Shown here: positions 1 to 24,558 of the stretch, one piece after another | Position numbering within the stretch: the first letter of the stretch is position 1 | Layout: every line of letters begins with the position of its first letter | NCBI GenBank assembly: GCA_964650515.1 | Contig: CAZYUB010000002.1 | Coordinates: 12,708-76,707 of the forward strand | Direction: 5' to 3' | Length of the DNA stretch: 64,000 nucleotides | Source: an uncultured Planctomycetia bacterium | GTDB taxonomy: Bacteria > Omnitrophota > Gorgyraeia > Pluralincolimonadales > Pluralincolimonadaceae | The notes under the pieces: model-generated | What the model was told of the DNA's origin: nothing | Database searches by the model: none | Seen by the model: only the letters and a program-made list of their open reading frames with translations | Translations under genes and position numbers: made by a program

Positions 1-327
1 TTCCTGTTGAAATACGATGACCATGCGCAATTACGAACTATACGGCCCGTCACTCCATATCCCGGTTCGCCGCTTTATTATTACGCGATAGAGAAAGGAT
101 TATTGAAGGATTGTGCGGACTTCTATGAGAATAAACATGTCAATTCGGATCTCATGAGCGTAAACTTCACGGACATGGCGGAAGAGGAGTATTACAGCTG
201 CCTGCTGGACGCGAACAAGAGGTTGATAACTAAATATTACGAGAACAAACATTCCGATTCCATGAAACAGGTCGATGACATTTACCTGAAGAAGGATCCG
301 GCATTCAGGGGATTCAGGCAGACATAA
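1..327 (+). CDS. C-terminal fragment of a B12-binding radical SAM protein (5'-truncated by window edge)
   Basis: Frame is open from nt 1. The tail 'TPYPGSPLYYYAIEKGLL' parallels the C-terminal 'PG(S/A)P(L/I)Y' segment of the four complete B12-rSAM paralogues in this window (e.g. 'PIPGAPLYDFAKL', 'AYPGSPIYSEAV'). Confidence 0.5.
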   Translation, partial: FLLKYDDHAQLRTIRPVTPYPGSPLYYYAIEKGLLKDCADFYENKHVNSDLMSVNFTDMAEEEYYSCLLDANKRLITKYYENKHSDSMKQVDDIYLKKDPAFRGFRQT

Positions 328-351
328 ATGCGAAGAAGAGCGGAGGTTTAC

Positions 352-834
352 ATGGGTACTAAAAAATGCCGCATGTTGGATGATATCGGCCTTATTGTGT
401 ATGATTTCGACGGGGTCTTCACGGATAACAAGGTGATTCTCAGGGAGGACGGCAAGGAGAGCGTTGTTGTGAACAGGTCCGACGGACTTGCGGTTGGCAT
501 GCTGAAAACCCTGGGTGTCCCGCAATTCATACTGACTACAGAAACAAACGGTGTCGTCAGATCCCGTGCGAAAAAGTTGGGCATCGGTATCAAAAAAGGG
601 CTGAAAGACAAGAGGTCGGCGCTTGTATCATTATGCAAGACGCACGGCGTGTCTCTCAGGAATGTAATGTTCGTTGGAAATGATATCAATGACCTCGAAG
701 CGATGAGGGAATGCGGCTATCCGGTTGCGCCAGCCGACTCTTACGCCCCGGCAAAGAAGGCAGCAAGGATAATCACAAAGGCAAAAGGCGGCGGCGGGGT
801 AGTGCGTGAACTGCTGGATATACTGTTAAAATAA
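352..834 (+). CDS. KdsC-family HAD-IIIA phosphatase (3-deoxy-ulosonate-phosphate phosphatase-like)
   Basis: HAD motif I 'IVYDFDGVFTDN' and motif IV 'GNDINDL', about 160 aa, as in KdsC/NeuAc-9-P phosphatase. ATG 352 has GGAGG 6 nt upstream; ATG 328 directly abuts the previous stop and is an alternative start. Confidence 0.6.
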   Translation: MGTKKCRMLDDIGLIVYDFDGVFTDNKVILREDGKESVVVNRSDGLAVGMLKTLGVPQFILTTETNGVVRSRAKKLGIGIKKGLKDKRSALVSLCKTHGVSLRNVMFVGNDINDLEAMRECGYPVAPADSYAPAKKAARIITKAKGGGGVVRELLDILLK

Positions 835-836
835 AT

Positions 837-2669
837 ATGCTTACATATGACTTGGGTATGATGAGGTCACCGGACGGCTCGTCATTAAGATATGAAGTGG
901 AAAGAAAGTCCTCCGATCTTGCTATTAAAATTTCGGAGGCCATTGCATCCGAGCGCGCGTATGAAGAGATTTCTGGAAGGCTTCCAAGCCGAAGGGTTCG
1001 GTCGTATTTCCAGTACCTGCTGAAGAAGGAAGTGTATCCTTATGTCCGCCAAGCCTGCGTGATTGATTGGTATAGGCGAAACTCAAAAGAAGTATCTCCG
1101 GAGAACCGTCCTGTAAAGGTTCCGATCGGAGGAATATTCCCGCTACTGATTCAATGCTGGGATTTTAACGATATTAAGATAATACCCGAAATAAAAGTAT
1201 GCTCAGTTTATAAGTCATTACCTATTATTGGTAAGCGGATCAAAGATATGTTATATAGGAAGAATCGCGCTCATAATTATAGCATGACGTTGCGCAAACC
1301 TGACGGATATATGATCGCGTGCCATTATACAGAAGGAATTGATCCGCTCAAGAGGAATGACCTTAACTGGTATGATGGAAGCGGGATTGATCCCATGAAG
1401 GTATTAGTCTATTTCGACACCCCCAACAACAGTAACGGAAATCCTGTTAGGAAGGAAGAGGTTGATAAGCTGAGAAAAGCGGGGTTCACAACCGTGGTAT
1501 TGAAAGAAGGCATTGTCGAGGGGGGTGAAAATATTTTATGGCCGGGTCCGGCAAATTGTAGGGATAGTGCTGTAGATATCCGGTCTGCGTCCAATTCCGT
1601 GGAGCGTTGGATATACGCAGCAGGTAACGATATTATCGGAGATGTTAAATATTGGCGTGCATTCCATGATGATTTTAATGTTAGGATAAACTATATTCCC
1701 GAGGAAGGCGCCATAAAGAACCATGCGCAGGCAATTGCTTTCGATATGGACGGGGAAAAGGGTGGGTTGCTTGCAGGTAAACAGCGCTCGGAAGCATACC
1801 TTCCTTATAGATACCATTTGGGATATCATCCGAAGCATTTGTTCTTCATGTGGAACAGCAGGGCCGCGGGGCAACTAGGTTGTGGAACTGAAACAATAGA
1901 CGATATTGTACTGACCGGCTATACTTATGACGCACTAAAAAGGTTGCGTTTCGATGGAGAAGGTTTACCGTCAAAGGATATGAGGACTCGCGGGGCAAAG
2001 ACCGTAATAGCATTGTTTGATAACATGCATGGATGCGATTATTTTGTATCGACGAATGACATGGTGCGTTTCTATAAAGCATTTTTTGAATGGGCCATTG
2101 CAGATGATAAAATCGGGTTGATAATTAAATCCAAGAAACCCATGGTCATGGAGAGGCTGCCGCGGATCCGGACATTGATGGCCAAAGCAACGGATACGGG
2201 CAGATGTATAAAGATGGACGACGAGTGGGGAAGGTATCCGTCAGATGCATCATTCGGTGCGGATTTTGCAGTCGGAACCGGGATATCGTCCGCCGTAATG
2301 GAATCGGTGATTTCAGGATGCAGGGGCATACATTATGACGCGACTCATTTGATAGGGCATGAATTCTACAAATGGGGACATAACAGGATAATCTTTGATG
2401 ATCTTGATAAGATGGTGAGTGCGCTGAAAGGATATGCCTTTGACCCGGGAAGTGAAGAAGGCCTCGGGGATTGGTCAAATCATTTAAATGAGATCGACTC
2501 CTTCCGTGACTGGAAGGGTGGAGAACGCATGGGTCAGTATATGAGAATATTACTGGAATCGTTCGATAAAGGAATGACAAGGCGCGAGGCTTTGGACAAT
2601 GCCGATAGGTTTTACAGGGACAAATGGGGGCAGGACAAGGTCATAAGGACGGGACAAACAAATGGATAA
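837..2669 (+). CDS. hypothetical protein with GT-B-like C-terminal signature (candidate capsule-type KpsC/KpsS- or TagF-like transferase)
   Basis: 610-aa ORF in the lower-GC block. C-terminal 'AVGTGISSAVMESVISGCRGIHYD' resembles the GT-B donor-binding helix. Same architecture as 9641..11491 and 17197..18633. No firm family assignment. Confidence 0.35.
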   Translation: MLTYDLGMMRSPDGSSLRYEVERKSSDLAIKISEAIASERAYEEISGRLPSRRVRSYFQYLLKKEVYPYVRQACVIDWYRRNSKEVSPENRPVKVPIGGIFPLLIQCWDFNDIKIIPEIKVCSVYKSLPIIGKRIKDMLYRKNRAHNYSMTLRKPDGYMIACHYTEGIDPLKRNDLNWYDGSGIDPMKVLVYFDTPNNSNGNPVRKEEVDKLRKAGFTTVVLKEGIVEGGENILWPGPANCRDSAVDIRSASNSVERWIYAAGNDIIGDVKYWRAFHDDFNVRINYIPEEGAIKNHAQAIAFDMDGEKGGLLAGKQRSEAYLPYRYHLGYHPKHLFFMWNSRAAGQLGCGTETIDDIVLTGYTYDALKRLRFDGEGLPSKDMRTRGAKTVIALFDNMHGCDYFVSTNDMVRFYKAFFEWAIADDKIGLIIKSKKPMVMERLPRIRTLMAKATDTGRCIKMDDEWGRYPSDASFGADFAVGTGISSAVMESVISGCRGIHYDATHLIGHEFYKWGHNRIIFDDLDKMVSALKGYAFDPGSEEGLGDWSNHLNEIDSFRDWKGGERMGQYMRILLESFDKGMTRREALDNADRFYRDKWGQDKVIRTGQTNG

Positions 2670-3834
2670 GCTCAATATTCTTGTTGTGGGAACAGGCATG
2701 TACGTTTGCGGCCGCGGCACATCTGGGGACGGGACCATAATGCCGGCGATATTCGAATGGGGCAGGACTGGAAATATCGGGAAGGTAATTGTAGCGGGCA
2801 GGAGTGCGTCCGGCGCAAAGGAAGCGAGAAGGAAGATAAGCGCGCTCAGCAGGAAAATGGGCGTATCCATTCCGGTATCTTTCTATCCGCAAGGGAACGA
2901 CGACGCAAAGGCGTACCTTAAAGCTATAGAAGACATGCCTCGGCCGGCATGCGCACTTGTGGCGACACCTGACAGGCTGCATAAGCGTAACGCAAAGGCG
3001 GCCATAAAAGCGGGATTGAATACGCTTGTAGTCAAGCCGCTTGTATCGACCGCTGCGGAAGTAAGGTCGCTTGTAGGCCTTCAGAAACGGATGAAAGTGT
3101 ATTGCGCGGTGGAATTCCATAAAAGGTATGATGATGCCAATCTGAAGCTAAGGGATGTTATATCACAGGGTGCTATAGGTGACCCGCTGTATTTCCTTGC
3201 TGAGTTCAGCCAAAGGAAGAGCATGCCGGAAAAAGTATTCAGGAGATGGGCAGCCTCTACTAATATTTTCCAATACCTTGGGATCCATTATGTGGACATG
3301 ATCCACTTTGTCACCAAGGCGAAACCGGTGCGGGCAATGGCTACCGGCCAGTCGTATTGGCTGAAATCAAAAGGCATTGATACGTATGATGCCGTTGAAG
3401 CCGTTACCGAGTGGAAAATGAAGAATGGAAAAAGATTCGTCTCGCATATACTCACCAACTGGATAGATCCCGAGAAGACATCGGCAATGTCCGACCAGAA
3501 GATAAAGGTCATAGGCACGAAAGGAAGATTTGAGTCAGATCAAAAGGACCGCGGAGTTACGATGGTTACCGACAAGAATGGCATAGAAGAGATCAATCCG
3601 TATTTTTGCGGCCAGTATGGCCCTTATGGGAATGTGAGATTTCGCGGCTATGGAATAGACAGCATAAAGACCTTTCTCGATGATTCTATAGCGGTAGAAT
3701 ACGGCAGCAAAACCATTGAAGAACTTGAGAAGGAAAGGCCTACCTTCAGCGACTCGCTTATATCCACAATGGTGCTTGAAGCCGTTAATACAAGCTTGAA
3801 ACGCAACGGTAAATGGGTTGAGATAGGCGGATGA
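2662..3834 (+). CDS. Gfo/Idh/MocA-family NAD(P)-dependent oxidoreductase
   Basis: N-terminal Rossmann 'LNILVVGTGMYVCGRG' and 'EWGRTGNIGKVIVAGRSA'; 390 aa, typical for this family (sugar dehydrogenases). Confidence 0.65.
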   Translation: MDKLNILVVGTGMYVCGRGTSGDGTIMPAIFEWGRTGNIGKVIVAGRSASGAKEARRKISALSRKMGVSIPVSFYPQGNDDAKAYLKAIEDMPRPACALVATPDRLHKRNAKAAIKAGLNTLVVKPLVSTAAEVRSLVGLQKRMKVYCAVEFHKRYDDANLKLRDVISQGAIGDPLYFLAEFSQRKSMPEKVFRRWAASTNIFQYLGIHYVDMIHFVTKAKPVRAMATGQSYWLKSKGIDTYDAVEAVTEWKMKNGKRFVSHILTNWIDPEKTSAMSDQKIKVIGTKGRFESDQKDRGVTMVTDKNGIEEINPYFCGQYGPYGNVRFRGYGIDSIKTFLDDSIAVEYGSKTIEELEKERPTFSDSLISTMVLEAVNTSLKRNGKWVEIGG

Positions 3835-4874
3835 AAAGGATATCCGTACCGCACGAGCGGTTATCGGTATTTATAAAGAAAGTGCTTCTGAATGCCGGGG
3901 TGCGCGAAGATGTTGCGTATCATGTCACTGAAGGACTCGTGCAAGCGTCATTAAGGGGCGTCGATTCCCACGGCATAAGGCTCTTTCCGCATTATATGGC
4001 GTCGGTAAAAGCCGGCAGGATAAATCCCGGCCCCGCATATAAGTTCGAGAGGACATCAGCCTCTACCGGAAAGTTCGACGCGGACCATACGTTCGGGCAC
4101 GCCGCGGGCATAGAGTCGGCGAGGAAGGCTGTGGAGCTCGCGAAGGAAGCGGGGACGGGCAGCATAGCCGTGTTCAATTCGACCCACTTCGGCGCGGCCG
4201 CATATTTCACGCTCGAGATAGCCAAACAGGGGATGATAGGGTTGAGTTTCACTCATGCGGATTCCCTGATGAAGACATATGCGGGCAAGAGGGCGTTCCT
4301 CGGGACGAACCCGATATCTTTCGCCGCGCCGGTGGAGGGCGAAGAGCCGTTCTGCCTAGACATGGCCACGACGCTTTATAATTTCAACAAGATAAAACAG
4401 CTGAGGGAGCGCAAGCATCCCGCACCGGAAGGCGTAGGCGCGGATACGGAAGGCAATGAGACGACGGATGCGGATAAGATATCGATGCTGCTTCCAATAG
4501 GCGGATACAAAGGATACGGCCTCAGCCTGATGGTGGAGGTGCTTTGCGGGATACTTACCGGCATGCCATATGGCCCGAATATATCGAGCATGTTCAAGGC
4601 GCCGTTATCGCAGAAAAGGTTCCTCGGACATTTTATTTGCGCCATGAGGATAGACTGCTTCCAGGAAGAGAAAGTGTTCAAGCGGCGCATGTCCGCGCTT
4701 TTGAATGAACTGAGGAATGAGCCTCCCATGGAGAAAGGGGTACCGGTGCAGGTGGCGGGAGACCCGGAGAAGAAGGCCGCCTCGGCAAGGATGAAAGAAG
4801 GGATACCGATGGCCGCGCAGGAGGCGGAGGCCTTCATGAAGTTATCCGCCGAATACGGGGTGGAATTCATATAG
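3831..4874 (+). CDS. Ldh_2 family (malate/L-lactate/L-sulfolactate-type) dehydrogenase
   Basis: 'GVDSHGIRLFPHYMASVKAG', 'HTFGHAAG', 'GSIAVFNSTHFGAAAYF' match the type-2 malate/L-lactate dehydrogenase fold; 347 aa. Confidence 0.6.
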   Translation: MKRISVPHERLSVFIKKVLLNAGVREDVAYHVTEGLVQASLRGVDSHGIRLFPHYMASVKAGRINPGPAYKFERTSASTGKFDADHTFGHAAGIESARKAVELAKEAGTGSIAVFNSTHFGAAAYFTLEIAKQGMIGLSFTHADSLMKTYAGKRAFLGTNPISFAAPVEGEEPFCLDMATTLYNFNKIKQLRERKHPAPEGVGADTEGNETTDADKISMLLPIGGYKGYGLSLMVEVLCGILTGMPYGPNISSMFKAPLSQKRFLGHFICAMRIDCFQEEKVFKRRMSALLNELRNEPPMEKGVPVQVAGDPEKKAASARMKEGIPMAAQEAEAFMKLSAEYGVEFI

Positions 4875-6520
4875 TGGAAAGAGCGGACTTCGCGATAATA
4901 GTCCCTCCGGCGGGGGTAAGCAATACGGTGTATCCGCCGTACGGGGCGATGTACATAGCCAGCGCGGCAAGGAAGGCGGGGCTAGAGGTCCGCATAATCA
5001 ATGTCGATACAGACAGGATATCGAACGCTGAAGTGATTAAACGGCTGAAGGCGTTCGGGCCGGGGTTTATAGGCATAAGCGGTATAGTCGCGCCGTCATA
5101 TAGATATATCAAATGCCTCAGCACGGATATTAAGTCCGCGATGCCGGAGAGCATACAGATACTCGGCGGAGGGTTATCGAGCGCGGCAGAGACGGTCCTG
5201 AGGAACATGCCGGTGGATTACGTCATAGCGGGCGAAGGAGATTCGGCAATAACGGAACTCATCGGCCGCCTGCGGAACGGGAAGGTTCCTTCGGATGTAA
5301 CCGGGCTTTATTACAGGGATGGCGGAAAATACGTATTCACGGGCGCGAGGAGACTTATCGCGAATATAGATGAATTGCCGTATCCCGCATTCGACCTTGT
5401 CGATATGTCCAGGTATATGCCTGACGGGAAGGAGTTCATAGGGTATTTCATCCAGGATATAAAGGACAGAAGGATAACGGATCCCGGCCGTAAGGGCGGG
5501 ATGGTGACGATACCGACAGGCAGAGGATGCTTCGGGAAGTGCTCATTCTGCTTCAGGGCATACCCGGGGCTCAGGACCCATTCCATGAAATATGTATTCG
5601 ACCTCATAGAATACTGCGCGGAGAAATTCGGCACGAGCTACTTCTCCTTCGGGGACGAATGCTTCGCGCCGAACAAGGAACATAATTGGAGGTTTATCGA
5701 GGAGTACAAGAGGAGGAAGCTCGACCTCGTCTTCAGGATACTCGGCATGAGGGTCGACACGGTCGACAGGGATATATTGCACGCTTATAAAGATATAGGA
5801 TGCTGGATGATCGAATATGGTTTCGAGGCCGGCAACCAGAGGATGCTGAATATCATCGACAAGAGGGTTACTGTGGAGCAGAACAGGCAGGTCGCCCTCT
5901 GGACCAGGGAGGCGGGGATATATACGTCGCCGACGATCGTCCTCGCGATGCCCGGAGAGACGGACAGGACAGTCAACGAATCTATAGGGTTCCTTAAATC
6001 GCTGAACCTCGGTTATAAGCAGTACCAATGGTCGTACGCCCTGCCGATACCCGGCGCGCCGCTATATGATTTCGCGAAGCTGTCGGGCGCCATCAAGGAC
6101 GAAGACGAATATCTCACCTCGCTTGACGGCAAGGTCGCGGGCGCGGGGGTCTTCCATGTAAATCTTACCGATGAGCCGGACTCGACTGTCGCCGGATGGG
6201 CGGACAGGATAAAGGAAGAGGTCGACGCGGATTATTTCAGGAGGGTATACAGGTTCGGGGCGGTTGCCGCGATAGCGCGCCTTTTAAAGAAGATCCGCCT
6301 GCATTTAAGGAGGAAGGACCTGAAGGATGTCATCAAAGGAAAATTGAAGAGCATCTGGCGGGGACATCCGGGCGGGCAAACCTCTGCCCCTGTCGCAGTC
6401 CCGGCAAGGTTCAGGAAGAGAAGTGATATCGTATTCGAGGACCTGATAAAGGGCATGGACGATACGGTCATCAACAGGGATATGGCGCTGAAGAACATAA
6501 ATACGAGGATTGCGTCGTGA
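4874..6520 (+). CDS. B12-binding domain radical SAM protein (class B rSAM; probable sugar C-methyltransferase or epimerase)
   Basis: N-terminal cobalamin-binding Rossmann-like region, then 'TGRGCFGKCSFC' (CxxxCxxC) radical SAM cluster motif. GTG start overlaps the upstream stop. Confidence 0.7.
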   Translation: MERADFAIIVPPAGVSNTVYPPYGAMYIASAARKAGLEVRIINVDTDRISNAEVIKRLKAFGPGFIGISGIVAPSYRYIKCLSTDIKSAMPESIQILGGGLSSAAETVLRNMPVDYVIAGEGDSAITELIGRLRNGKVPSDVTGLYYRDGGKYVFTGARRLIANIDELPYPAFDLVDMSRYMPDGKEFIGYFIQDIKDRRITDPGRKGGMVTIPTGRGCFGKCSFCFRAYPGLRTHSMKYVFDLIEYCAEKFGTSYFSFGDECFAPNKEHNWRFIEEYKRRKLDLVFRILGMRVDTVDRDILHAYKDIGCWMIEYGFEAGNQRMLNIIDKRVTVEQNRQVALWTREAGIYTSPTIVLAMPGETDRTVNESIGFLKSLNLGYKQYQWSYALPIPGAPLYDFAKLSGAIKDEDEYLTSLDGKVAGAGVFHVNLTDEPDSTVAGWADRIKEEVDADYFRRVYRFGAVAAIARLLKKIRLHLRRKDLKDVIKGKLKSIWRGHPGGQTSAPVAVPARFRKRSDIVFEDLIKGMDDTVINRDMALKNINTRIAS

Positions 6521-7563
6521 TAAAGGAAGCACTGCTTGGCGCGGATTACAGGTTCGACGGGGCGCGGGCGCCCGAATCGCTGAGCAGCCCGCAGAATGAG
6601 GCGAGGGAGCTCTTCCTTAAGGAAATCCACGCGAGGGGAAGATACATCGACGTAGAAAGATGCCCTTTCTGCGGGGCGACGGAGTTCACTAAGATATCGG
6701 AAAGGGACGCGAGGGGGCTGCCGTGCGAAGTGGCCGTCTGCGACGCCTGCGGCGGTTGCTTCAAGAACAGGATATTGGACCCGGAGGCGAACAGGTACCT
6801 ATACGAGAAGATATCATACAAGCTTAGAGGCAAGGACCGTTCTCCCGGTGCGGTAGAAGCGCTGTTCAGGAAAAGGATAAAGGAATTCGCCTACCCGAGA
6901 TACGGGTTCATAAGGCATTTCGCCGAACTGGAGCAGGATATGGACCTTATCGCCGAATTCGGCTGCGGCGACGGAGCGAACCTGGTCCCGTGGAGGAATG
7001 ACGGTTTCAGCGTGACAGGCATCGAGTTCGACGGCGGAATGGTCGAGTTCGGCAAAAGCAAGGGGCTCGACCTCGTTCAGGGCGATTTCATGACTCACGA
7101 CCTCGGAGGGGCGAGGCCGAAGCTTATAATACTGTCGCACCTGCTTGAGCATGTATCGGACATGGACGCGGTCTTATCGCGCATACATTCCGTGCTCGAC
7201 CCTTACGGATACCTTTTCATAGAAGTGCCGGGCGTGAAAGGACAGGGCCTTGGCAGGCCGTTATCTTCGTTCGATGTTGAGCACAATTACTATTTTGACC
7301 TCGAAAGCCTTTCGTCGGCGCTGGGGAAGAACAGGTTCTCCGTGGCTTACGGAGACGAATATATAAGGATGATCTGCAGGCCGGCCGGCGCGCAGATCGC
7401 GGGACCGCAGAATAAGAAGGCCGGCGCGCGAAGGTTGTTGGACCTGTTCAGGCGAGAGGAGTCGGGAAGCATCAGGGCGAAGGTCATGAACAGGCTGACC
7501 GGCGCGTACTTCAAGGCGTATTATTCGATATTATCGTCAGGAGTCGGACATGGCAAAGCGTAA
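6517..7563 (+). CDS. class I SAM-dependent methyltransferase with N-terminal Zn-ribbon
   Basis: 'CPFCG...C..CG' zinc ribbon, then SAM motif I 'IAEFGCGDGANL'; GTGA start overlap. Confidence 0.6.
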   Translation: MIKEALLGADYRFDGARAPESLSSPQNEARELFLKEIHARGRYIDVERCPFCGATEFTKISERDARGLPCEVAVCDACGGCFKNRILDPEANRYLYEKISYKLRGKDRSPGAVEALFRKRIKEFAYPRYGFIRHFAELEQDMDLIAEFGCGDGANLVPWRNDGFSVTGIEFDGGMVEFGKSKGLDLVQGDFMTHDLGGARPKLIILSHLLEHVSDMDAVLSRIHSVLDPYGYLFIEVPGVKGQGLGRPLSSFDVEHNYYFDLESLSSALGKNRFSVAYGDEYIRMICRPAGAQIAGPQNKKAGARRLLDLFRREESGSIRAKVMNRLTGAYFKAYYSILSSGVGHGKA

Positions 7564-8287
7564 ATGCAGGACGGTCGCAATGATACCCGCGCGCATGGGC
7601 AGCACGAGGCTCGCTATGAAGAACCTCGCGTTGATAGGCGGGAAACCGATGATCTACTACGCGATAAAGGCGGCGAAGGATTCGGGCGTATTCGACAGGG
7701 TGGTCATAAATTCGGAAGACAGCGTATTCGCGAAGATAGCGAAGCGTTACGGCGCGGAATTCTACCTGCGCCCGCGGGAATGGGCGACCTCGGCCGCGAA
7801 ATCAGATTACGTGGTATATGATTTCGTCAGGAATAACCCGTGCGATGTGGTCGCGTGGGTCAACCCGACGTCGCCGCTGCAGACTGCGGACGAGGTAAGG
7901 GGCGCCATGGAATATTTCGAAAAAAAGAAGCTCGATTCGATGATAACCGTCAAGGACGAGCAGGTCCATTGCGTATATAAAGGAAAGCCGGTCAATTTCA
8001 AGCTGAAGGAGGTCTTCGCGCAGACGCAGGACCTCGTCCCTGTACAGCCCTTCGTATATTCGGTGATGGCATGGAAGACGGGAAGGTTCATGAAAGAGTT
8101 CGAAAAAAAGGGTTTTGCGTTCTTTTGCGGTAAGACGGGGTATTACCCGGTAAGCAAGCTCGCGGGCATAATAATCAAAAGGCAGGAAGACCTGATGGCC
8201 GCGGACCTTATACTGCGGTCTATCTCAAAAAAAGGCGGGTACAAGCTGCGATACGACAAGCTCGCCGTAAAGGGCAGGAGAGGATAA
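7550..8287 (+). CDS. acylneuraminate/CMP-ulosonic acid cytidylyltransferase (CTP_transf_3, NeuA/PseF/LegF-like)
   Basis: 'VAMIPARMGSTRLAMKNLALIGGKPMIYYAIKAA...FDRVVINSED...AKRYGAEFYLRP' matches the CMP-NeuAc synthetase N-terminal fingerprint. Confidence 0.7.
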   Translation: MAKRKCRTVAMIPARMGSTRLAMKNLALIGGKPMIYYAIKAAKDSGVFDRVVINSEDSVFAKIAKRYGAEFYLRPREWATSAAKSDYVVYDFVRNNPCDVVAWVNPTSPLQTADEVRGAMEYFEKKKLDSMITVKDEQVHCVYKGKPVNFKLKEVFAQTQDLVPVQPFVYSVMAWKTGRFMKEFEKKGFAFFCGKTGYYPVSKLAGIIIKRQEDLMAADLILRSISKKGGYKLRYDKLAVKGRRG

Positions 8288-8288
8288 T

Positions 8289-9641
8289 TTGGGAAAGCTC
8301 GCTTCTATCATAATCAGGACAAAGAACGAGGAGCGCTGGATAACGCAGTGCCTGCACGGCGTATTCGAGCAGGAATACAGGGATCTCGAGGTCATACTCG
8401 TGGATAACGAAAGCGAGGACAAGACGCTCGAGAAGGCTGGGCAGTTCAAACTTGCGAAAGTCGTGAAATGCACAGAATACCTGCCGGGCAAAGCCCTCAA
8501 CATCGGAATAAGGGAATCGAAGGGGGATTATATAGTATGCCTCTCGGGCCATTGCATACCCGTGAACTCGAAGTGGCTCGGGAACTTGCTGAAGGACCTC
8601 GATGACCCCGGGGTGGCAGGCGTATACGGCAGGCAGGAGCCGATGAGCTTTACCCCCGATTCCGACAAGCGGGACCTTACGCTCGTCTTCGGGCTCGACA
8701 GGAAGGTCCAGCAGAAGGACAGCTTTTTCCACAACGCGAACAGCGCGATGAGAAAAGAGACCTGGCGGAAATACCCGTTCAATGAGGCCGTCACGAATAT
8801 CGAGGACAGGGTCTGGGCGAAAAAGGTCCTCGAACAGGGATATAAGATAATATATGAGCCGGAGGCGAGCGTATACCATTACCACGGTATACACCAGAAC
8901 AGCAACGAACAGCGCTGCTCGAACGTCGTGAAGATAATGGAGAAGCTCCATGCAGGATTCAGCAGGAAGCCGATAGACATGGAGAAGATGGACGTCGCGG
9001 CGATAATACCGGTAAAGGGCGCGGCGAGGTATGTCGGGGATGCGCCGCTCATCGAATACACGATAAAGAGGGCCAAGGGATCGAAGTACATAAATAACGT
9101 GATAGTCTCCACGGATAACGAAGAGACCGGGCAGTTGGCGAGGAAGCTGGGCGCGAACGTGCCGTTCATAAGGGACCCTTCGCTCTCGAAAGAGAATATC
9201 GACCTCGCGCAGGTCCTGCGGTATACGATGAAGAAGCTCGAGGAGTCGCGCATACTTCCGGATATCGTCGTCCTGCTGGAGGTCACGTTCCCGTTCAGGC
9301 CCGAGGGCCTGCTCGACGACATGATCGCGCAGCTCGCGGAAGGCGGGTTCGACAGCGTCGTCGCGGCGAAGAAGGAGAACAAGGCGATATGGCAGCAGAA
9401 GGACGGTGTCATATCGCAGATAGAGGAAGGCATAACCCCGAGGCAGTTCAAGGAGCCCACGTATATAGAGTTGAAGGGTGTGGGCTGCGTGACGCATCCG
9501 GAGTTCCTCAGGGAAGGCAAGCTCCTCGGTGAGAAGGTGGGCATCTACGAACTGGACAACCCGTATTCGCACCTCGAGGTCAGGAGCGAGGAGGATTATA
9601 AGCTCGCGTCATCGCTCATAAAGGAGGTATTCGGGAGGTAA
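8289..9641 (+). CDS. bifunctional protein: N-terminal GT2 glycosyltransferase fused to C-terminal CTP_transf_3 cytidylyltransferase domain
   Basis: N-terminus 'ASIIIRTKNEERWITQCL...VILVDNESED' (GT2). C-terminus 'VAAIIPVKGAARYVGDAPLIEYTIKRA...VIVSTDNEETGQLARKLGANVPFIRD' (NeuA-like). TTG start with GGAGAGGA RBS. Confidence 0.6.
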   Translation: MGKLASIIIRTKNEERWITQCLHGVFEQEYRDLEVILVDNESEDKTLEKAGQFKLAKVVKCTEYLPGKALNIGIRESKGDYIVCLSGHCIPVNSKWLGNLLKDLDDPGVAGVYGRQEPMSFTPDSDKRDLTLVFGLDRKVQQKDSFFHNANSAMRKETWRKYPFNEAVTNIEDRVWAKKVLEQGYKIIYEPEASVYHYHGIHQNSNEQRCSNVVKIMEKLHAGFSRKPIDMEKMDVAAIIPVKGAARYVGDAPLIEYTIKRAKGSKYINNVIVSTDNEETGQLARKLGANVPFIRDPSLSKENIDLAQVLRYTMKKLEESRILPDIVVLLEVTFPFRPEGLLDDMIAQLAEGGFDSVVAAKKENKAIWQQKDGVISQIEEGITPRQFKEPTYIELKGVGCVTHPEFLREGKLLGEKVGIYELDNPYSHLEVRSEEDYKLASSLIKEVFGR

Positions 9642-11491
9642 TGGCTTTTTCCGGCGTTAAAAAGCTCGTATTCATCAACGGCATAAACGAGGCCGAAGCT
9701 TACATGGATGGCCGTCCCGCGGAAGATGCCGCCGGCGATACGCTCCTGATAGCGATGAACCCGTCTATCCGTGCGCGCCTGAAGAGAAAGGGGTTTCACG
9801 CTGCCGATACCGCGGACTATTTCACGACGGATTCCCATGTGAATACCCTGCAGAAGTCGGATGAGCTTGTCAAATGGTTCGAGGCGAATGCCCGTTTCGC
9901 CGATACCGGGATGGGGGTCAGCAGCGCCTACAGGGATTTCTTCATATACTGGGCAAGGTTCGCAATGCATTACTGCATCTGGGCAATAGATATAGCATCC
10001 GCGGCGATTGAGGCACATAGGCCGGAGGCGGTATGCGCATACGGGGCGGGCGGTAAAGCGGCGGTGTCCAGCCTGTATATCGAGAACAGCGAAGGCTATT
10101 TCGGCCGCCTGGTAAGGGATACCGCGAAGGCGAAAGGCGCAGGATTCATAGACCTAGGGAATGGGGACGCCGAGGCCCGCAGGGAACAGGGACCGCGCGC
10201 AATATACATGAAGTCGCTGGTAAGGTTCATCCTGCAGAACATAAAGTTCTCTTTATGGGAGGCCTCCGTATGGGCAAAGAACATATTCCCGGGCAAGAAG
10301 CCGGTATTCTTCACGACGAGGTTCTATAACCTCGACAAGCTCGCGAAGGAATCGGTAAAGGACGGCAGCGGCAAGAGGCCGGAGATACTGAGGGGGCCGG
10401 TAATATTCACATACGGCCTGTCTGACGCGGTCATAAAACTGTTCGGCGGCGCGTATTCCGCCGCTATAATATCGCAGAAGAAGAACTTCGCGGAGCTCGT
10501 CGAAAAGATGAGGAAAGACCCCTCGGTATTCTCCTACAAGGGGGTATCGTTCGCGGAGGCCGTCTCGGGCAAGATCGAGGATAACCTCGGCGACCATATA
10601 ATGGGCCTTATGCTGTGGACCGTGAAACTCAATGATTTTGTCGACAGGTCGAAGGCGTCATTGTTCGTCTCCAACGGCAACAGGGCGGACGATGTGATAC
10701 TGGCGGAATTATGCGCGAGGAAAGGTGTAAGGACGTTGCTGATAAGCCACGGTTCGCATGTCCGGCCTAAGAACGTCCCTGAGAGGATAGAATGGGGCGA
10801 GCACGGAAGGGCGCTTCTGAGGGCGCCGTTCTCGGATATCGCGCTGCAGACGCCCGTCGCGGAAGGATACGTCGATGCCTTCAAGACGGAAAGCAGGATG
10901 ATCAGGACCGGCCCTCTCATATGGGGAAAACCGGTGGAACGCAGGAAGAGCGGCGTGAGGACTATCGTGCATGCAGGCACGCCGAAGGCGGCGAACAGCT
11001 TAAGGCCGTTCGTCTACGAGACGCCCGATGAGTACATACGCGGCATATGCGAGCTCGCCGCGGCCGTGGAGGGGATACCCAATGCGGCGCTTATCGTGCG
11101 TTTCAGGCCGTCCTCGGATATAGGGATTGAAGATATCAGGGAACTCGTGCCATTTTCCGATAAAGTGAAGCTCAGCACAGACGGGCCTTTTTCGGCAGCG
11201 CTCGGAGCTGCGGACCTGCTGGTAAGCTTCTCATCTACGACGATAGAGGAAGCCCTGCAGAACAGGATACCCGTCCTTCTTTACGGAGGTTCGGGGCGCT
11301 ATATGCACATAGAAGCTGTCGAGGCGGGAAGCAACGGCGAAATGCCGCGGTCGGCGATATACCATGTGAGTAAGGCCGGCGACCTTAGACCTGCAATAGA
11401 GAAGATCCTCGGCCTAGGAACGGACGGTAAACTGTTCGACGAATATATATACCCTGAAAACGAAAGGCAACCGCTGGAGGCGCTATTATAA
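9641..11491 (+). CDS. hypothetical protein with GT-B-like C-terminal half (candidate CMP-sugar or CDP-alcohol dependent transferase)
   Basis: 616 aa. C-terminal 'AALGAADLLVSFSSTTIEEALQNRIPVLLYGG' resembles the GT-B C-domain helix-loop. Paralogous architecture to 837..2669 and 17197..18633. Confidence 0.35.
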   Translation: MAFSGVKKLVFINGINEAEAYMDGRPAEDAAGDTLLIAMNPSIRARLKRKGFHAADTADYFTTDSHVNTLQKSDELVKWFEANARFADTGMGVSSAYRDFFIYWARFAMHYCIWAIDIASAAIEAHRPEAVCAYGAGGKAAVSSLYIENSEGYFGRLVRDTAKAKGAGFIDLGNGDAEARREQGPRAIYMKSLVRFILQNIKFSLWEASVWAKNIFPGKKPVFFTTRFYNLDKLAKESVKDGSGKRPEILRGPVIFTYGLSDAVIKLFGGAYSAAIISQKKNFAELVEKMRKDPSVFSYKGVSFAEAVSGKIEDNLGDHIMGLMLWTVKLNDFVDRSKASLFVSNGNRADDVILAELCARKGVRTLLISHGSHVRPKNVPERIEWGEHGRALLRAPFSDIALQTPVAEGYVDAFKTESRMIRTGPLIWGKPVERRKSGVRTIVHAGTPKAANSLRPFVYETPDEYIRGICELAAAVEGIPNAALIVRFRPSSDIGIEDIRELVPFSDKVKLSTDGPFSAALGAADLLVSFSSTTIEEALQNRIPVLLYGGSGRYMHIEAVEAGSNGEMPRSAIYHVSKAGDLRPAIEKILGLGTDGKLFDEYIYPENERQPLEALL

Positions 11492-11492: not shown

Positions 11493-13298
11493 ATGAGACC
11501 CGAAAGGAAAGTCAACGCAGTATGGTTCTTCCTGAAACGCTACAAGCGCATCTACGTGACGATGCTTTTAGTCACGATAGGATATTCCGTGCTCGAGAGC
11601 GTGAATATATCGATGTTCCTTCCGCTCTTCACGTCGGTCGTGGGGGAGAGCGCCGAGACGGCCGGAAAGTTCTTCCGGATAATGGAGGGCATCATATCGC
11701 TGATGCCGTTCGGGAACAGGTTCCTGAACATATGCGTGTTGATAGTGGTGCTGCTCGTGGTCAAGGAGATACTCGGATTCGTCAGGCACGTGCTGATCGG
11801 CTACGGGATAGGCAGGGTCATAACCGACGTCAAGGAAGAGATCTTCAACAAGTACGTCAATTCGGATTACCAGTTCTTCCTCGACAACAAGCAGGGCAGG
11901 CTCCTCTATAATATGCTTACGGCCACCGGACGCCTCGGCAGCTGCCTGCAGTTCATACCCGATTTCATAAACGCGATGCTGATGACGGTAAGCATAGGCG
12001 CGCTGCTCTTCTCGATGTCGTTCGGGGTGACGATGGTGCTCCTCGTAGCGGGCCTGGCTTTCAATCTCCTTACGCAGATACTGGCCAAACGCGTCTCTTA
12101 CCACATAGGGACGGAGAGGGCGACCGTCAGCACCGAAGCGAACGTCATAGCGAACGAGGTGATAGACGGGATAAAGCATATAAAGGTCTTCGGTTCGTCG
12201 GAGTTCTGGAGGCATAATTTCGAGCGATCGGTAAGGCGCTTCAAGACCCTCGTCATAGAGGATTTCGTATGGATAGGCATCCCCGAAAGGGTAATGCAGC
12301 TGCTTCCCGCGGCGATGCTTATAATGGTTGCCATATTCTTCAGGCATTTCAGCAAAGGCCCGGACGCCGATCAGGCGTTTTCCGCCAAGATAGCGCTTGT
12401 GGGCGTATATGCGTACGCGTTCTACAGGCTAATCCCTTTCCTGACGTCATTCGGAAGGCTGCGTATGCAGATAATGGGCGCGCTTCCCGAGGTCGAGCTA
12501 TTGTACGACGACCTGCATGAGGACACGAACAGGATCAAGGACGGCAATACGAAGATAGACGGGTTCAGGAAGGAACTGGCGTTCAGGGACGTGAGCTTCA
12601 ATTACAAGGGGAAGAAGGAGATACTTAACGGCGTCTCCTTCAATATCGAAAAGGGCAAGACCACCGCCATCGTGGGCGCCTCCGGAAGCGGCAAGACAAC
12701 GCTGATAAACCTCATTGTAAGGCTCTTCGTGCCTGACGAAGGCAGGATAACCCTGGACGGGACAGACCTGAGGGACATCAAGTACGCCTCGCTTATCAAG
12801 CTCATCGGGATGGTAAGCCAGGACACGTTCATATTCAACGCGACGATAAAGGAGAATATCATCTTCGGCCTTAAGGCAGTGACGCACGAACGGCTTGTCA
12901 ACGCGTGCAAGCTGGCCAACGCGCATGATTTCATAAGCAATTTCCCCGAAGGCTACGAGACGGTCGTCGGCGATAAGGGATTGAAGCTGTCGGGCGGGCA
13001 GAGGCAGAGGATAGCCATTGCGCGCGCGATAATCAGGGACCCGGAGATACTGATACTCGACGAGGCGACGAGCTCGCTCGATTACCATTCCGAGGCGATA
13101 GTGCAGGAGGCCATAAACGAGGTATCGAAGAACAGGACGGTCATAGTCGTAGCGCACAGGCTTTCCACGGTGATCGACGCGGACAAGATAATAGTCATGG
13201 ACAAGGGCAGGATAGTAGAGGAAGGGACGCATGCCGCGCTTATAAAGAAAGAAGGGGTCTACAGGGCTTTATATGAAAGACAGCAAAAAACGATATAA
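11493..13298 (+). CDS. fused TMD-NBD ABC exporter (MsbA/PglK-like, candidate lipid-linked glycan flippase)
   Basis: Six predicted N-terminal TM helices, Walker A 'GASGSGKTT', ABC signature 'LSGGQRQRIAIARA', Walker B 'ILILDEATS', H-loop 'VIVVAHRLS'. Confidence 0.85.
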   Translation: MRPERKVNAVWFFLKRYKRIYVTMLLVTIGYSVLESVNISMFLPLFTSVVGESAETAGKFFRIMEGIISLMPFGNRFLNICVLIVVLLVVKEILGFVRHVLIGYGIGRVITDVKEEIFNKYVNSDYQFFLDNKQGRLLYNMLTATGRLGSCLQFIPDFINAMLMTVSIGALLFSMSFGVTMVLLVAGLAFNLLTQILAKRVSYHIGTERATVSTEANVIANEVIDGIKHIKVFGSSEFWRHNFERSVRRFKTLVIEDFVWIGIPERVMQLLPAAMLIMVAIFFRHFSKGPDADQAFSAKIALVGVYAYAFYRLIPFLTSFGRLRMQIMGALPEVELLYDDLHEDTNRIKDGNTKIDGFRKELAFRDVSFNYKGKKEILNGVSFNIEKGKTTAIVGASGSGKTTLINLIVRLFVPDEGRITLDGTDLRDIKYASLIKLIGMVSQDTFIFNATIKENIIFGLKAVTHERLVNACKLANAHDFISNFPEGYETVVGDKGLKLSGGQRQRIAIARAIIRDPEILILDEATSSLDYHSEAIVQEAINEVSKNRTVIVVAHRLSTVIDADKIIVMDKGRIVEEGTHAALIKKEGVYRALYERQQKTI

Positions 13299-14997
13299 AG
13301 AATTCGAGATCCTTGATTGTACTATCAGGGACGGCGGTTACCTCAACGACTGGAAGTTCGATAAGGCGCTTGTCAGGGAGGTTTATAGGGCCGTCTCGAA
13401 AGCGGGTGTGCCTGTCATCGAGATAGGGTTCAGGGGGACGGATGAGCATTTCGACAGGAAGAGGTACGGCCCCTGGAGGTTCTCGGACGAGTTGTTGCTG
13501 CGCGAGACGATCGAAGGGATAGACGGCGCGAAACTCGCCCTGATGGGTGACTTCGGCAGGATATCGGCGGACGACTTTGTCCCGCGCGACGAGAGCGTTG
13601 TCGATATCGTGAGGATAGCGGCCCATAAGAACGATATAGCGGAAACTATCAAGACCCTCGGCAGGATAAAGAAGAAGGGCTATAAGACATCGCTTAATGC
13701 GATGGGATACAGCAACTACACGAAATCGGAACAGAAGAAGTTCGTCTCGATGGTCAGGAAGGCGGGCCTCGATTATGTATATGCGGTGGACAGCTACGGT
13801 TCGGTCTTCCCGAACGAGATAGAAGGGCTCATCAGCCCGCTGCTCGGCATACGCGGGACGAAGGTCGGGTTCCATCCGCATAACAGCCTGCAGATGGCGT
13901 TCGCGAACACGCTTGAGGCGGTCCGCTGCGGCGCGGATATAGCCGATTCTACGTTCTACGGCATTGGCCGCGGGGCGGGCAACCTGCCGACCGAAATAAT
14001 CGTACTCTATAAGGAACTTTTAGGCGATAAGAAATATAACGCGATCCCGGTCCTCAATTGCATAGACAGGTACTTCCTGCCGATGAGGAAGGAGATTGAC
14101 TGGGGATACCAGCTGCCGTTCATGCTCTCGGGGATGTACAAATGCCACCCGAACTACGCGAGCGGCCTGATAAATTACAGGGAATATACGATAGACGAGA
14201 TATGCAAGGCGATGGAGGCCATTGAGAAGAGGAACCCGTTAGGATACAAGCCGGAGATATTAAAGGAGATCATAGAGGACGGGCTTATCGGGAAGCTGAA
14301 GACCTCCTCCGTCACGAAGAAGGCGGGGAAGGCCAGGAAAACCGGGGCATCAGTGCCGTATGCGGGAAGGCATGAAGGCAGGGATTTCCTGGTGCTGGCC
14401 AACGGGCCCGGCCTGAAGGATAACAGGGAGAAGATAGAGGCGTTCATAAGGAAGACGGACCCCGTCATACTCGGTGCTAACAACCTCTCGGGGCTGTTCG
14501 TCCCGCATTATCACGCGTTCAACAACAAGAGGAGGTTCACGGATTACGCCGGTACCGTATCCGGGAAGTCGAAACTCCTCATAAGCGAATATTTCCCGGA
14601 TGAGTTCATCAGGGAATACACGGACAGGGACTACGAGAAACTGTATTATAACGATGTCCTGAACGCGCATTTCGGCATCGATGACGGGGTCATACGGACG
14701 AATTGCAGGACGATATCGGTCCTGCTTATCGGCGCGGCGATAGTAATGGGCGCCAGGAGGATATTCGTCGCCGGGATGGACGGCTACCTCGGCCCGGGCA
14801 CAGAGGGCAAGGCCCTCTATTACAACGAGAAAGACGAAAAGACCGACAAGCAGATGATCATCGAGAGGCATATGTGGTGCCAGAAGTTCCTGGAGGAGAT
14901 CGAGGCATACCTGCAGAAGAACGGCAGGGAGGGTATCCATATCATAACGCCCACGACCTACAAGGCGTTCTATAAAAGCGTGGAAAATTACATATGA
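13273..14997 (+). CDS. DRE-TIM (HMGL-like) pyruvate aldolase domain fused to MptE-like/DUF115 (Maf-type) domain
   Basis: N-terminus 'ILDCTIRDGGY', 'FHPHNSLQMAFANTLEAVRCGA', 'GIGRGAGNLPTE' match DmpG/HMG-CoA lyase/IPMS metallo-aldolases. C-terminus 'FLVLANGPGLKDNREKIEAF...PVILGANN' resembles DUF115/6-hydroxymethylpterin diphosphokinase MptE-like. Confidence 0.55.
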   Translation: MKDSKKRYKEFEILDCTIRDGGYLNDWKFDKALVREVYRAVSKAGVPVIEIGFRGTDEHFDRKRYGPWRFSDELLLRETIEGIDGAKLALMGDFGRISADDFVPRDESVVDIVRIAAHKNDIAETIKTLGRIKKKGYKTSLNAMGYSNYTKSEQKKFVSMVRKAGLDYVYAVDSYGSVFPNEIEGLISPLLGIRGTKVGFHPHNSLQMAFANTLEAVRCGADIADSTFYGIGRGAGNLPTEIIVLYKELLGDKKYNAIPVLNCIDRYFLPMRKEIDWGYQLPFMLSGMYKCHPNYASGLINYREYTIDEICKAMEAIEKRNPLGYKPEILKEIIEDGLIGKLKTSSVTKKAGKARKTGASVPYAGRHEGRDFLVLANGPGLKDNREKIEAFIRKTDPVILGANNLSGLFVPHYHAFNNKRRFTDYAGTVSGKSKLLISEYFPDEFIREYTDRDYEKLYYNDVLNAHFGIDDGVIRTNCRTISVLLIGAAIVMGARRIFVAGMDGYLGPGTEGKALYYNEKDEKTDKQMIIERHMWCQKFLEEIEAYLQKNGREGIHIITPTTYKAFYKSVENYI

Positions 14998-15728
14998 AAA
15001 TAATCGGGGTAATACCGGCGCGTTTCAAGTCATCGAGGTTTCCCGGCAAGCCGTTGGCGGATATATGCGGAAAGCCGCTCGTATGGTGGGTATATAAACA
15101 GGCCGAGAAGGTAAAAGAACTCGGGAAGGTCTATGTCGCTACGGATGACGGCAGGATAGCCCGGGTATGCAAAAAGCTCGCGATACCGTATGTGATGACC
15201 TCGGGCAGGCACCAGACAGGCACGGACAGGGTCGCCGAGGTCGCGAGGAAGGTCAAAGCGGATATTTACGTGAATATACAGGGGGATGAACCCCTGCTGA
15301 AACCCGCTATGATAAGAAGCGCGATAGGACCCCTTTTGAAAAAGAATTCCGGATTCGATGTTACGAACCTGATGTCTTTAATACGCAACCCGAAGGAGGT
15401 ACCGAGCCCGACCGTCCCGAAGGTCGCGGTGAGCGCGAAGGGCGACGCCGTATTCCTCTCGAGGGCGCCGATACCTTATCCGAAGAGGGGCGGCTACGCG
15501 CAGTATTATAAGCAGGTCTGCGTATACGGGTTCAGGAGGAAGGCGTTATTGGCGTTCGGCGGGCTTTCGAGAGGGGCTTCCGAGCTTATAGAGGATATCG
15601 AGCTGCTGCGCTTTATAGAGAACGGCATAAAGGTCAGGATGATCGAAGTGAAAAGCGGCAGCATGGCGGTTGATACTCCTGAGGACCTGAAGGCGGTAAA
15701 AAAGATAATATGCAAAAACCGGGCGTAA
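14994..15728 (+). CDS. 3-deoxy-manno-octulosonate cytidylyltransferase-like (CMP-Kdo synthetase family, KdsB-like)
   Basis: 'IIGVIPARFKSSRFPGKPLADICGKPLVWWVY...GKVYVATDD...VNIQGDEPLL' is the classic KdsB N-terminal pattern; 244 aa. Confidence 0.7.
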   Translation: MKIIGVIPARFKSSRFPGKPLADICGKPLVWWVYKQAEKVKELGKVYVATDDGRIARVCKKLAIPYVMTSGRHQTGTDRVAEVARKVKADIYVNIQGDEPLLKPAMIRSAIGPLLKKNSGFDVTNLMSLIRNPKEVPSPTVPKVAVSAKGDAVFLSRAPIPYPKRGGYAQYYKQVCVYGFRRKALLAFGGLSRGASELIEDIELLRFIENGIKVRMIEVKSGSMAVDTPEDLKAVKKIICKNRA

Positions 15729-24552: not shown

Positions 24553-24558
24553 TAAGCC

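Follow-up and report, generated by a model that had tools for sequence, protein, structure and literature searches.

The 64 kb stretch of contig CAZYUB010000002.1 analysed here, hereafter the window, is one very large glycan-biosynthesis locus in which every gene lies on the + strand, to which all window coordinates below refer. It contains an adjacent pair of genes whose products carry the fold of cytidine monophosphate (CMP)-sugar synthetases (CSS). The first gene (7550..8287, ATG start) encodes a stand-alone CSS-fold protein of 245 aa, and the second (8289..9641, TTG start) encodes a fusion of 450 aa, composed of a GT2-like domain of GT-A fold, a linker and a degenerate CSS-fold domain. Our results come from the open reading frames (ORFs) of the window, their Pfam and NCBIfam profile matches, AlphaFold2 models and Foldseek comparisons with the PDB. 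They are best explained, with a confidence that we would call reasonable rather than high, by the fusion being a metal-atypical glycosyltransferase joined to a dead CSS-like domain, which would bind an anionic ligand or dock the partner synthetase. Each half of the fusion lacks one or more of the features that define its family; the fusion is not a categorically new system.

The fusion protein and its two halves

Gene 8289-9641 encodes one single soluble protein. Pfam recognises Glycos_transf_2 (PF00535) at residues 6-157 (E 1.4e-24, 87.3 bits versus 23.3) and CTP_transf_3 at residues 250-360 (profile positions 22-125 of 217, E 1.8e-10, 41.4 bits versus a gathering threshold of 22.6), and each of the 120 best database homologues is a protein of ~450 aa with both domains. 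The AlphaFold2 model is continuous (mean pLDDT 95.2, pTM 0.81), and the fusion is co-linear and full length in nearly all of the best 80 loci from GTDB genomes, on which the neighbourhood counts given below are based. At the gene junction (8277..8291), as read from the sequence, the ribosome-binding site GGAGAGGA (8277-8284) is followed by the stop codon TAA of the stand-alone gene (8285-8287) and by the TTG start of the fusion (8289-8291), 4 nt past the former and 1 nt past the latter, a layout that implies translational coupling. This TTG is the first possible start following the in-frame stop, the next Met being near residue 119, and it is the only one that keeps the conserved first beta-strand of the fusion (residues 5-11), which begins 4 residues beyond it. 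A frameshift or a mis-join is thus excluded by the hundreds of independent co-linear homologues, by the continuity of the model and by the preservation of the first strand. In a preliminary description of the locus, the two ORFs had been placed as they are here, as adjacent NeuA-like (CSS) folds of which the second is C-terminal to a GT2 domain, and this is borne out by Pfam and Foldseek; the TTG start, about which that description had been cautious, proves to be sound.

The fused CSS-like domain (residues 236-450; 8994..9638) has a complete CSS fold, including the dimerisation arm, and it is matched by Foldseek to 6IFD, 9T4Z, 1QWJ and 1EYR with TM values of 0.82-0.87 and a root-mean-square deviation (rmsd) of 2-3 Å. 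The catalytic parts of this fold are nevertheless lost. The loop between beta1 and alpha1, PVKGAARYVGDAP (9009..9047), is shortened, and the P-loop (GGSKxxPxK) is deleted from it. When the profile of the fused domain is aligned with 9FTB and 9T4Z, an 8-residue gap falls exactly at the P-loop, "IPvk........gs" being aligned to "IPARGGSKRIPRKN" of 9FTB and to the equivalent stretch of 9T4Z, so that Lys21, catalytic in the CSS of Neisseria meningitidis (NmCSS), falls on G244 of the fusion. This deletion is a family trait: in an alignment of 104 diverse fusion sequences, the segment P241-T258 is mostly 18 aa long, compared to ~26 in the canonical CSS aligned, the shortened loop is present in 103 sequences, and a GS[KRT] motif is found in a single one. 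Likewise, the loop leading from beta1 to the helix counts 11 residues in the fusion model and 19 in the model of the stand-alone protein.

The Asp pair that binds Mg in canonical enzymes is also absent, D209-x-D211 of NmCSS being replaced by E430-V-R432 (9576..9584; profile alignment to 6IFD). This region is variable across the wider fusion family, and several members are truncated before the motif. Moreover, Q104 of NmCSS aligns to E331. In NmCSS, Lys21 and Arg12 are catalytic, the R165A variant is inactive, kcat is decreased 15,000-fold by D211A, and no measurable activity is left by D209A (PMC2901514).

The two halves of the fusion also differ in their rate of change. The GT2 half has a mean pairwise identity of 0.50 and the CSS-like half one of 0.20, and columns conserved at 90% or more are 54/216 in the former versus 0/210 in the latter; the 21 invariant columns of the 104-sequence alignment all lie inside the GT2 domain. 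In remote members, the C-terminal ~200 residues are missed by Pfam, and they are still recognised by the HMM of the family. As the P-loop and its Lys are deleted, the Asp pair is replaced and this half evolves far faster than the GT2 half, the fused domain can be described as a pseudo-cytidylyltransferase; judged from its sequence, it is not a competent activating domain. The preliminary description had taken it for one, and this does not hold, the catalytic Arg/Lys expected of CTP_transf_3 being lost.

What the fused domain keeps is a set of basic residues. The arm motif P384-R385-Q-F-K388 (9438..9452) is aligned by MAFFT to P164-R165-Q166 of NmCSS. In the subfamily of the window, K/R243, R295, R337, R385, K388, G397, E430 and R432 are essentially invariant. 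The counts for fusions paired with a synthetase of the same clade as the stand-alone protein (the "IIK" clade, see below) are 39/39 for R295, R337 and E430, 38/39 for R385 and R432, and 36/39 for K388. More broadly, the R385 position is occupied by R or K in 72 of the 104 fusions. In the window subfamily, the basic residues, including those of the arm motif, are predicted to form a pocket at the former active site.

The GT2 domain (residues 5-220; 8301..8948) is strongly conserved and presumably the catalytic half. It has the GT-A fold and the Pfam GT2 signature, and its structural matches are PcManGT, CgT, WrtF and TarS (Foldseek). With the inverting GT2 enzymes (SpsA-type; PcManGT 6YV7, K4CP, TarS), it shares the fold, the nucleotide-binding region around D39 (VDNESED) and the "ED" catalytic-base motif, which is E172-D173 here (8802..8807; aligned to the ED of K4CP) and which is conserved in 104/104 sequences for E172 and 103/104 for D173. 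It differs from them by the lack of a DxD motif. At the corresponding position, S86-G-H88-C89 (8544..8555) is aligned to D-C-D of K4CP and D-A-D of PcManGT, and this S-x-H-C is virtually invariant (S86 in 103, H88 in 104 and C89 in 102 of the 104 sequences), SxHCxP being found in 124 of 140 cluster representatives. A second difference is the conserved C-terminal His pair of the domain, H197-Y-H199 (8877..8885), a candidate ligand of metal or phosphate (H197 in 104/104, H199 in 98/104), just short of which the sequence alignments to all solved GT2 structures end. Remote members of the family keep SxHCxP, EDRxW and HxHG even where Pfam loses the C-terminal domain.

A search of a plasmid collection yielded no full-length homologue of the fusion; it only yielded stand-alone GT2 relatives of the SxH type. 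One of them, of 293 aa, is encoded by plasmid pP742401 of Gloeothece citriformis PCC 7424 (L088:5974-6852) and carries LSAHAFP, SEDREW and YHSH. Its neighbours form an exopolysaccharide (EPS) locus with GT1/GT4 enzymes, sulfotransferases and a pyruvyl transferase, and no CSS is encoded nearby. GT2 enzymes without DxD thus form a subfamily that extends beyond the fusion.

The stand-alone partner and the other CTP_transf_3 domains

The stand-alone protein is matched by CTP_transf_3 in its N-terminal half only (residues 9-136, profile positions 1-127 of 217, E 3.8e-22). Its AlphaFold2 model (pLDDT 85.9) has the CSS fold, the best PDB matches in Foldseek being CMP-sialate, CMP-Kdn and CMP-Pse synthetases (TM ~0.8). 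Both proteins of the pair thus resemble the CMP-nonulosonate synthetases (NeuA, PseF, LegF, CMP-Kdn synthetase) in fold and dimerisation arm, with TM values of 0.8-0.87 and 21-26% identity. The stand-alone protein further shares with the solved structures (1EYR, 6IFD, 1QWJ, 9FTB, 9T4Z) the R..GS.R...KN P-loop and the TSPL motif, whereas the fused domain departs from them by the deletion and replacements described above. The CTP-binding P-loop of the stand-alone protein, PARMGSTRLAMKN (residues 13-25; 7586..7624), is intact, K24 being equivalent to Lys21 of NmCSS in the alignment to 1EYR and 9T4Z, and 50 homologues show no variation at G17, S18, R20, K24 and N25.

The rest of the active site is not canonical. 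Where NmCSS has its Mg-binding D209-x-D211, the stand-alone protein has I208-I209-K210 (8171..8179; profile alignment to 1EYR and 1QWJ); K210 is invariant in the 50 homologues and the signature of the clade is I(I/V)K. The dimer-arm motif, canonically R-x-Q-D-L or x-R-Q-D-L, is QTQDL (residues 158-162; 8021..8035). Within the clade, T159 and Q160 are invariant and position 158 is mostly Q, otherwise K, R or L, so that the Arg of the arm that binds the sugar carboxylate is conserved at neither candidate position (Q158 and T159 in the window). The sugar-binding residues as a whole (arm Arg, N175-G176, Y179) are not kept, NGAIY being replaced by FVYSVM. The same signature is present in more than 40 orthologues from more than 40 loci of many phyla, whereas canonical CSS paralogues of the same loci carry R(R/S/T)QDL, NGAIY and DID. 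By these sequence features, the stand-alone protein belongs to a distinct and conserved clade of CSS, here called IIK.

Against the PseF model TIGR03584, the two proteins of the pair reach 87.8 and 63.9 bits versus an equivalog cut-off of 205.7, and neither exceeds 54.5 bits with the KdsB models, the cut-offs of which are 155-281. Because of these scores, far below equivalog cut-offs, and of the non-canonical residues, the substrate of the stand-alone protein cannot be read as Kdo, Neu, Pse or Leg. Since its P-loop is under strict selection, it should still be a CTP-using nucleotidyltransferase: probably, it is an active CTP-dependent enzyme with an acceptor other than standard Kdo, Neu, Pse or Leg. 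K210 might be used in an IspD-like way, by analogy with Lys213 of IspD.

The only textbook CMP-ulosonate synthetase of the window is the KdsB-like gene at 14994..15728, encoding a canonical KdsB-type cytidylyltransferase of 244 aa, as had been proposed. CTP_transf_3 covers its full length (E 7.8e-47), and three NCBIfam models exceed their cut-offs (NF009905, 289.8 versus 255 bits; NF003952, 276.8 versus 193; TIGR00466, 158.7 versus 155.2). Its motifs are all present: the P-loop IPARFKSSRFPGK, GDEP (residues 97-100), VDT (residues 226-228) and VDT(P)EDL. It is thus alike KdsB, unlike the stand-alone protein and the fusion. This gene overlaps the end of that of a 574-aa HMGL-like aldolase (module 13273-15728) and is not beside KdsA; no match to KdsA (DAHP_synth_1) or KpsF was found among the window ORFs scanned. 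As its neighbour is this aldolase rather than KdsA, its sugar may not be Kdo. A Brocadiaceae contig (L004:13469-20442) carries a module encoding HMGL-like, ferredoxin-like, HAD and HpcH/HpaI aldolase proteins, a CTP_transf_3 protein and a 619-aa protein without known family. Together, the two modules hint at a keto-deoxy acid made via a pyruvate aldolase, not at classical Kdo.

The window thus has three CTP_transf_3 domains at the Pfam level. In related contigs, a fourth one lies just upstream of the position where the window starts, beside NeuB: the CTP_transf_3 gene is found in L001, the fusion of which is 92% identical to ours, and NeuB in L008, the nearest contig (a Candidatus Omnitrophota metagenome-assembled genome with a 98% identical fusion). 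The full locus should therefore have at least four such domains. Besides the CTP_transf_3 gene and NeuB, the segments concerned (L001:1-2551 and L008:507-2035), which are immediately upstream of window position 1, hold a TylF-type methyltransferase; it is inside this methyltransferase (7-327) that the window itself starts, and a HAD phosphatase (328-834) comes next.

In the preliminary description, three CMP-activating domains had been counted and two or three different CMP-activated acidic sugars deduced from them. The count stands at the Pfam level and falls as regards activation, the fused domain being without catalytic parts; as for the sugars, the window has one canonical and one atypical enzyme, not three. 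More generally, counting CTP_transf_3 domains over-predicts the diversity of CMP-sugars, since, of the three found here, one is a pseudoenzyme and another mechanistically atypical.

Conserved cassettes and possible roles of the gene pair

The fusion had been described as an uncommon architecture, and it turns out to be widespread among environmental bacteria. An exhaustive search (E<=1e-30) yields 501 clusters (50% identity representatives), and fusion relatives are present in at least 525 GTDB species genomes of many phyla; most of the top 150 representatives are full length, with identity down to 32%. They are found in Omnitrophota, Planctomycetota (including anammox lineages), Desulfobacterota, Nitrospirota, SAR11 and Prochlorococcus, as well as in Roseibium (a cultured isolate), Legionellaceae, Acidobacteriota, Cyanobacteria and lineages of the candidate phyla radiation (CPR). 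NCBI names the fusion "glycosyltransferase" only and its stand-alone partner "hypothetical protein".

The surroundings of the fusion are also conserved. Among the 80 loci, a homologue of the stand-alone CSS is near the fusion in 61. A GFO/IDH/MocA oxidoreductase (2662-3834 in the window, by Pfam) is near it in 46-55, on the same strand in 45 of 46, and an Ldh_2-family dehydrogenase (3831-4874, by Pfam) in 44-46, always on the same strand. In 30 of the 80, there is also a ~620-aa protein without firm family, here called c4, which is often encoded directly downstream of the fusion (9641..11491 in the window, 616 aa). Weak matches of 28 c4 members are to DUF6716 (19), Epimerase_2 (7) and, once, Glyphos_transf (TagF-like, 4e-8), and HGSH and SSTTIEEA are conserved motifs. 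Sequence and profile searches of the PDB with the 616-aa protein gave nothing significant, the best hits being an unrelated hydroxylase (E 0.012) and an epimerase (E 0.19). From its motifs and matches, c4 is probably a GT-B-type transferase, and it is a candidate for transferring a CMP- or cytidine diphosphate (CDP)-activated product.

Two types of cassette can be distinguished. Type A, that of the window, is composed of c4, GFO, Ldh_2, the fusion and a CSS of the IIK clade, the latter in some cases along with a methyltransferase. In type B, found in Prochlorococcus, Roseibium and SAR324, the fusion and GFO are accompanied by an intact CSS and by two enzymes that resemble KdsA/DAHP synthase and shikimate dehydrogenase, respectively. 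Compact five-gene examples of type B are seen in Roseibium sp. MMSF_3544 (L072:8923-14386), in Prochlorococcus (L063:9255-14257) and in L048, their CSS being a D-I-H variant. The KdsA/DAHP-synthase-like and shikimate-dehydrogenase-like enzymes point to a 3-deoxy-ulosonic acid as the sugar of the pathway, and the product of the compact type B cassette in marine bacteria is probably a 3-deoxy-ulosonic acid not yet described. For the conserved cassette in general (GFO, Ldh_2 or KdsA-like enzyme, atypical synthetase), the probable product is an acidic sugar, likewise undescribed. Among intact CSS, the one closest to the fused domain is that of type B (the DIH clade), with which it has KN(Y)W, SRQ..., TGLxCA and D-I-H in common. 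In the 77 loci with a called fusion, the partner is of the IIK clade only in 39 and DIH-like only in 15, it is never of both, and neither is found in 23: the two partner clades of the fusion are mutually exclusive.

According to the explanation that we favour, catalysis would take place in the GT2 domain of the fusion, where His, possibly Cys, would hold a metal or the donor phosphate instead of the DxD carboxylates. The CSS-like domain would be a pseudoenzyme, the basic pocket of which (K/R243, R295, R337, R385, K388 and R432 in the window subfamily) could accommodate a cytidine nucleotide or else an acidic sugar of ulosonic type; instead of this, or besides it, the domain could dock the partner synthetase by way of the CSS dimer interface. 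Activation by the stand-alone protein would in this way be coupled to glycosyl transfer during the assembly of an acidic surface glycan. A GT-A enzyme having an invariant S-x-H-C for DxD and joined to a dead nucleotidyltransferase would then offer a testable case of pseudoenzyme use in glycan assembly. As to database labels, neither "glycosyltransferase" nor "CMP-N-acetylneuraminic acid synthetase" is adequate for this fusion, whose family is large and occupies surface-glycan loci in bacteria that are abundant yet little studied (Omnitrophota, anammox bacteria, SAR11, Prochlorococcus).

One more specific form of this explanation comes from a complementary pattern: the stand-alone protein has an intact P-loop and has lost the arm Arg, whereas the fused domain has lost the P-loop and appears to retain the arm Arg. 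This pattern is suggestive of a heterodimer with one composite active site. The IIK protein and the fusion could even form an obligate heterodimer, the composite site of which, with the P-loop supplied by the former and the arm Arg by the latter, would make a labile CMP- or CDP-activated acidic sugar and hand it over directly to the DxD-less, His-based GT-A domain; we regard this full version as rather unlikely. If true, it would be an undescribed enzyme-pseudoenzyme channelling machine, possibly including the first GT2-type transferase for ulosonic acids, and it would be widespread, from Omnitrophota, anammox Planctomycetota and Desulfobacterota to SAR11 and Prochlorococcus.

Several points weigh against the favoured explanation or its heterodimer form. 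The PDB sequence search and the available literature provide no characterised member of the GT2-CSS fusions. The absence of a recognised partner within 10 kb in the 23 of 77 loci, many of which are on truncated contigs, weakens an obligate pairing. The assignment of the arm Arg in the fused domain is ambiguous by one turn, as MAFFT places R385 and HMMER places K388 on R165 of NmCSS, and across the broad family (104 sequences) the pocket residues are conserved at 55-90%. Both the basic pocket and the heterodimer are proposals derived from sequence alignment, and the IspD-like role of K210 is presumed by analogy with IspD Lys213. Finally, the chemistry of the GT2 domain need not involve CMP-sugars, given the cyanobacterial SxH GT2 without CSS nearby.

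An alternative is that the C-terminal domain is a structural or oligomerisation scaffold only, with no ligand and no specific tie to the stand-alone protein, the linkage of the two genes simply reflecting a shared pathway. Some two-domain glycosyltransferases do carry a non-catalytic GT-A domain, and the best whole-chain Foldseek matches of the fusion are enzymes with two GT-A domains (K4CP, PmHS2, COLGALT1), which are alike in having tandem GT-A-type, Rossmann-like domains. The second domain is however a glycosyltransferase in these enzymes and derived from a nucleotidyltransferase (CSS) in the fusion, and the domain arrangement is not common to them, as the TM values are 0.3-0.4 and the rmsd exceeds 20 Å. 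The fast evolution of the C-terminal domain, which has no invariant column in the broad family and is unrecognised by Pfam in remote members, would fit a scaffold. It would not lead one to expect the near invariance of R295, R337, R385, K388, R432 and K/R243 at former active-site positions in the window subfamily, and the strict either/or pairing with the CSS clades (39, 15 and 0 loci) suggests a specific relationship. We regard this alternative as unlikely.

The GT2-like domain could also be a pathway enzyme, hydrolysing or tailoring a small nucleotide-sugar, while the CSS-like domain would hold the CMP- or nucleoside diphosphate (NDP)-linked substrate. The GT-like enzymes PseG and NeuC of nonulosonic-acid pathways would be models for such a role. 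An identity of ~50% across phyla, with 54 near-invariant positions of which many are polar, is more in line with a fixed small-molecule substrate than with a serotype-specific acceptor. The partners in the cassettes are redox enzymes and synthases (GFO and Ldh_2, KdsA-like and shikimate-dehydrogenase-like enzymes), and in type-A loci a GT-B-like candidate transferase, c4, is already adjoining. A loose precedent, which counts for the favoured explanation as well, is EpaA of Acinetobacter prophages, in which CTP_transf_3 is joined to an aldo-keto reductase and which acts with a separate dehydrogenase in a nonulosonic-acid pathway (PMC12053666). Compared by description only, EpaA and the fusion are alike in that a CSS-type domain is joined to an enzyme that is not a synthetase, and they differ by the domain order, which is opposite, and by the partner, a reductase rather than a GT2. 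What speaks against a pathway enzyme is that the ED base motif and the overall GT2 signature are retained, that a related SxH GT2 stands among ordinary glycosyltransferases in the cyanobacterial EPS locus, and that the fusion is the only transferase candidate of the minimal type-B cassette in Prochlorococcus and Roseibium. We consider this role improbable.

It is very unlikely that the fusion is a bifunctional synthetase-transferase, in which the C-terminal domain would make a CMP-activated acidic sugar and the GT2 domain would transfer it, three active CMP-activating domains being then present in the window. The Pfam score of CTP_transf_3, well above gathering, and the complete CSS fold are what such an enzyme would have, as are R295, R337 and R385, likely counterparts of CSS substrate-binding residues (R385 being aligned to R165 of NmCSS). 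On the other hand, the P-loop with its catalytic Lys is deleted in all but one of the 104 diverse members, the Mg ligands are E/R or absent, with some members ending before the motif, and the domain has no invariant residue and a mean identity of 20%. Equivalent mutations abolish or severely impair NmCSS (PMC2901514), and a second synthetase would be redundant in most loci, where an intact CSS partner is encoded alongside. In NeuA-esterase fusions (CTP_transf_3 and SGNH), the CSS domain is N-terminal, active and joined to an enzyme for the same sugar; in the fusion, it is C-terminal and degenerate. Lastly, the chance that the fusion arose through an error of assembly or sequencing, be it two genes united by a frameshift or a misplaced start, is practically nil: the unusual TTG start and the 1-nt gap past the upstream stop are its sole support, and the same co-linear ~450-aa protein recurs in hundreds of independent assemblies from many phyla, the model is continuous (pLDDT 95) and only TTG keeps the conserved first strand.

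Other features of the locus

A 450-aa ORF at 40762-42114 was considered as a possible paralogue of the fusion and rejected, as it has no BLAST similarity to it and encodes a PMT_2-like membrane protein. A phosphonate-type cluster, to be thought of when B12-binding radical SAM, HMGL-like and cytidylyltransferase genes occur together (as for fosfomycin and FR-900098), was also rejected, no PEP-mutase domain being found in 53 chosen ORFs of the + strand.

Another fusion of a nucleotidyltransferase with a GT2, in the opposite order, is encoded at 42096-43547 (483 aa; NTP_transferase at residues 8-224, Glycos_transf_2 at 254-379). It is directly followed by a B12-binding radical SAM gene (43544-44992), which is one of four paralogues in the window, the others being at 4874-6520, 15710-17206 and 19556-21076. 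The four suggest C-methylation or other radical tailoring of sugars, and in ~30 of the 80 related loci B12 radical-SAM paralogues are likewise encoded no more than ~10 kb away from the fusion. Besides c4 (9641-11491), two other proteins belong to the same size range (~550-620 aa) and are likewise without Pfam or NCBIfam family (837-2669 and 16963-18633).

Three PMT_2-like membrane proteins (GT-C, dependent on polyprenol-phosphate-sugars) are encoded at 28199-30094, 35243-37066 and, as mentioned, 40762-42114, which implies glycosylation steps at the periplasmic face besides those of the cytoplasmic GT2/GT4 enzymes. Two glutamine-amidotransferase proteins are encoded at 25418-27391 and 56034-57926; one of them, of 630 aa, is a complete asparagine synthase of the AsnB type, and in the other (657 aa) the GATase domain alone can be recognised. 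Uronic or ulosonic carboxylates may be what they amidate. Finally, the G+C content is 0.45-0.48 at 1-4000 and 20000-30000, compared to ~0.55 elsewhere, with GC skew and AT skew positive throughout, which suggests that the window is a mosaic locus made of segments of different origin.

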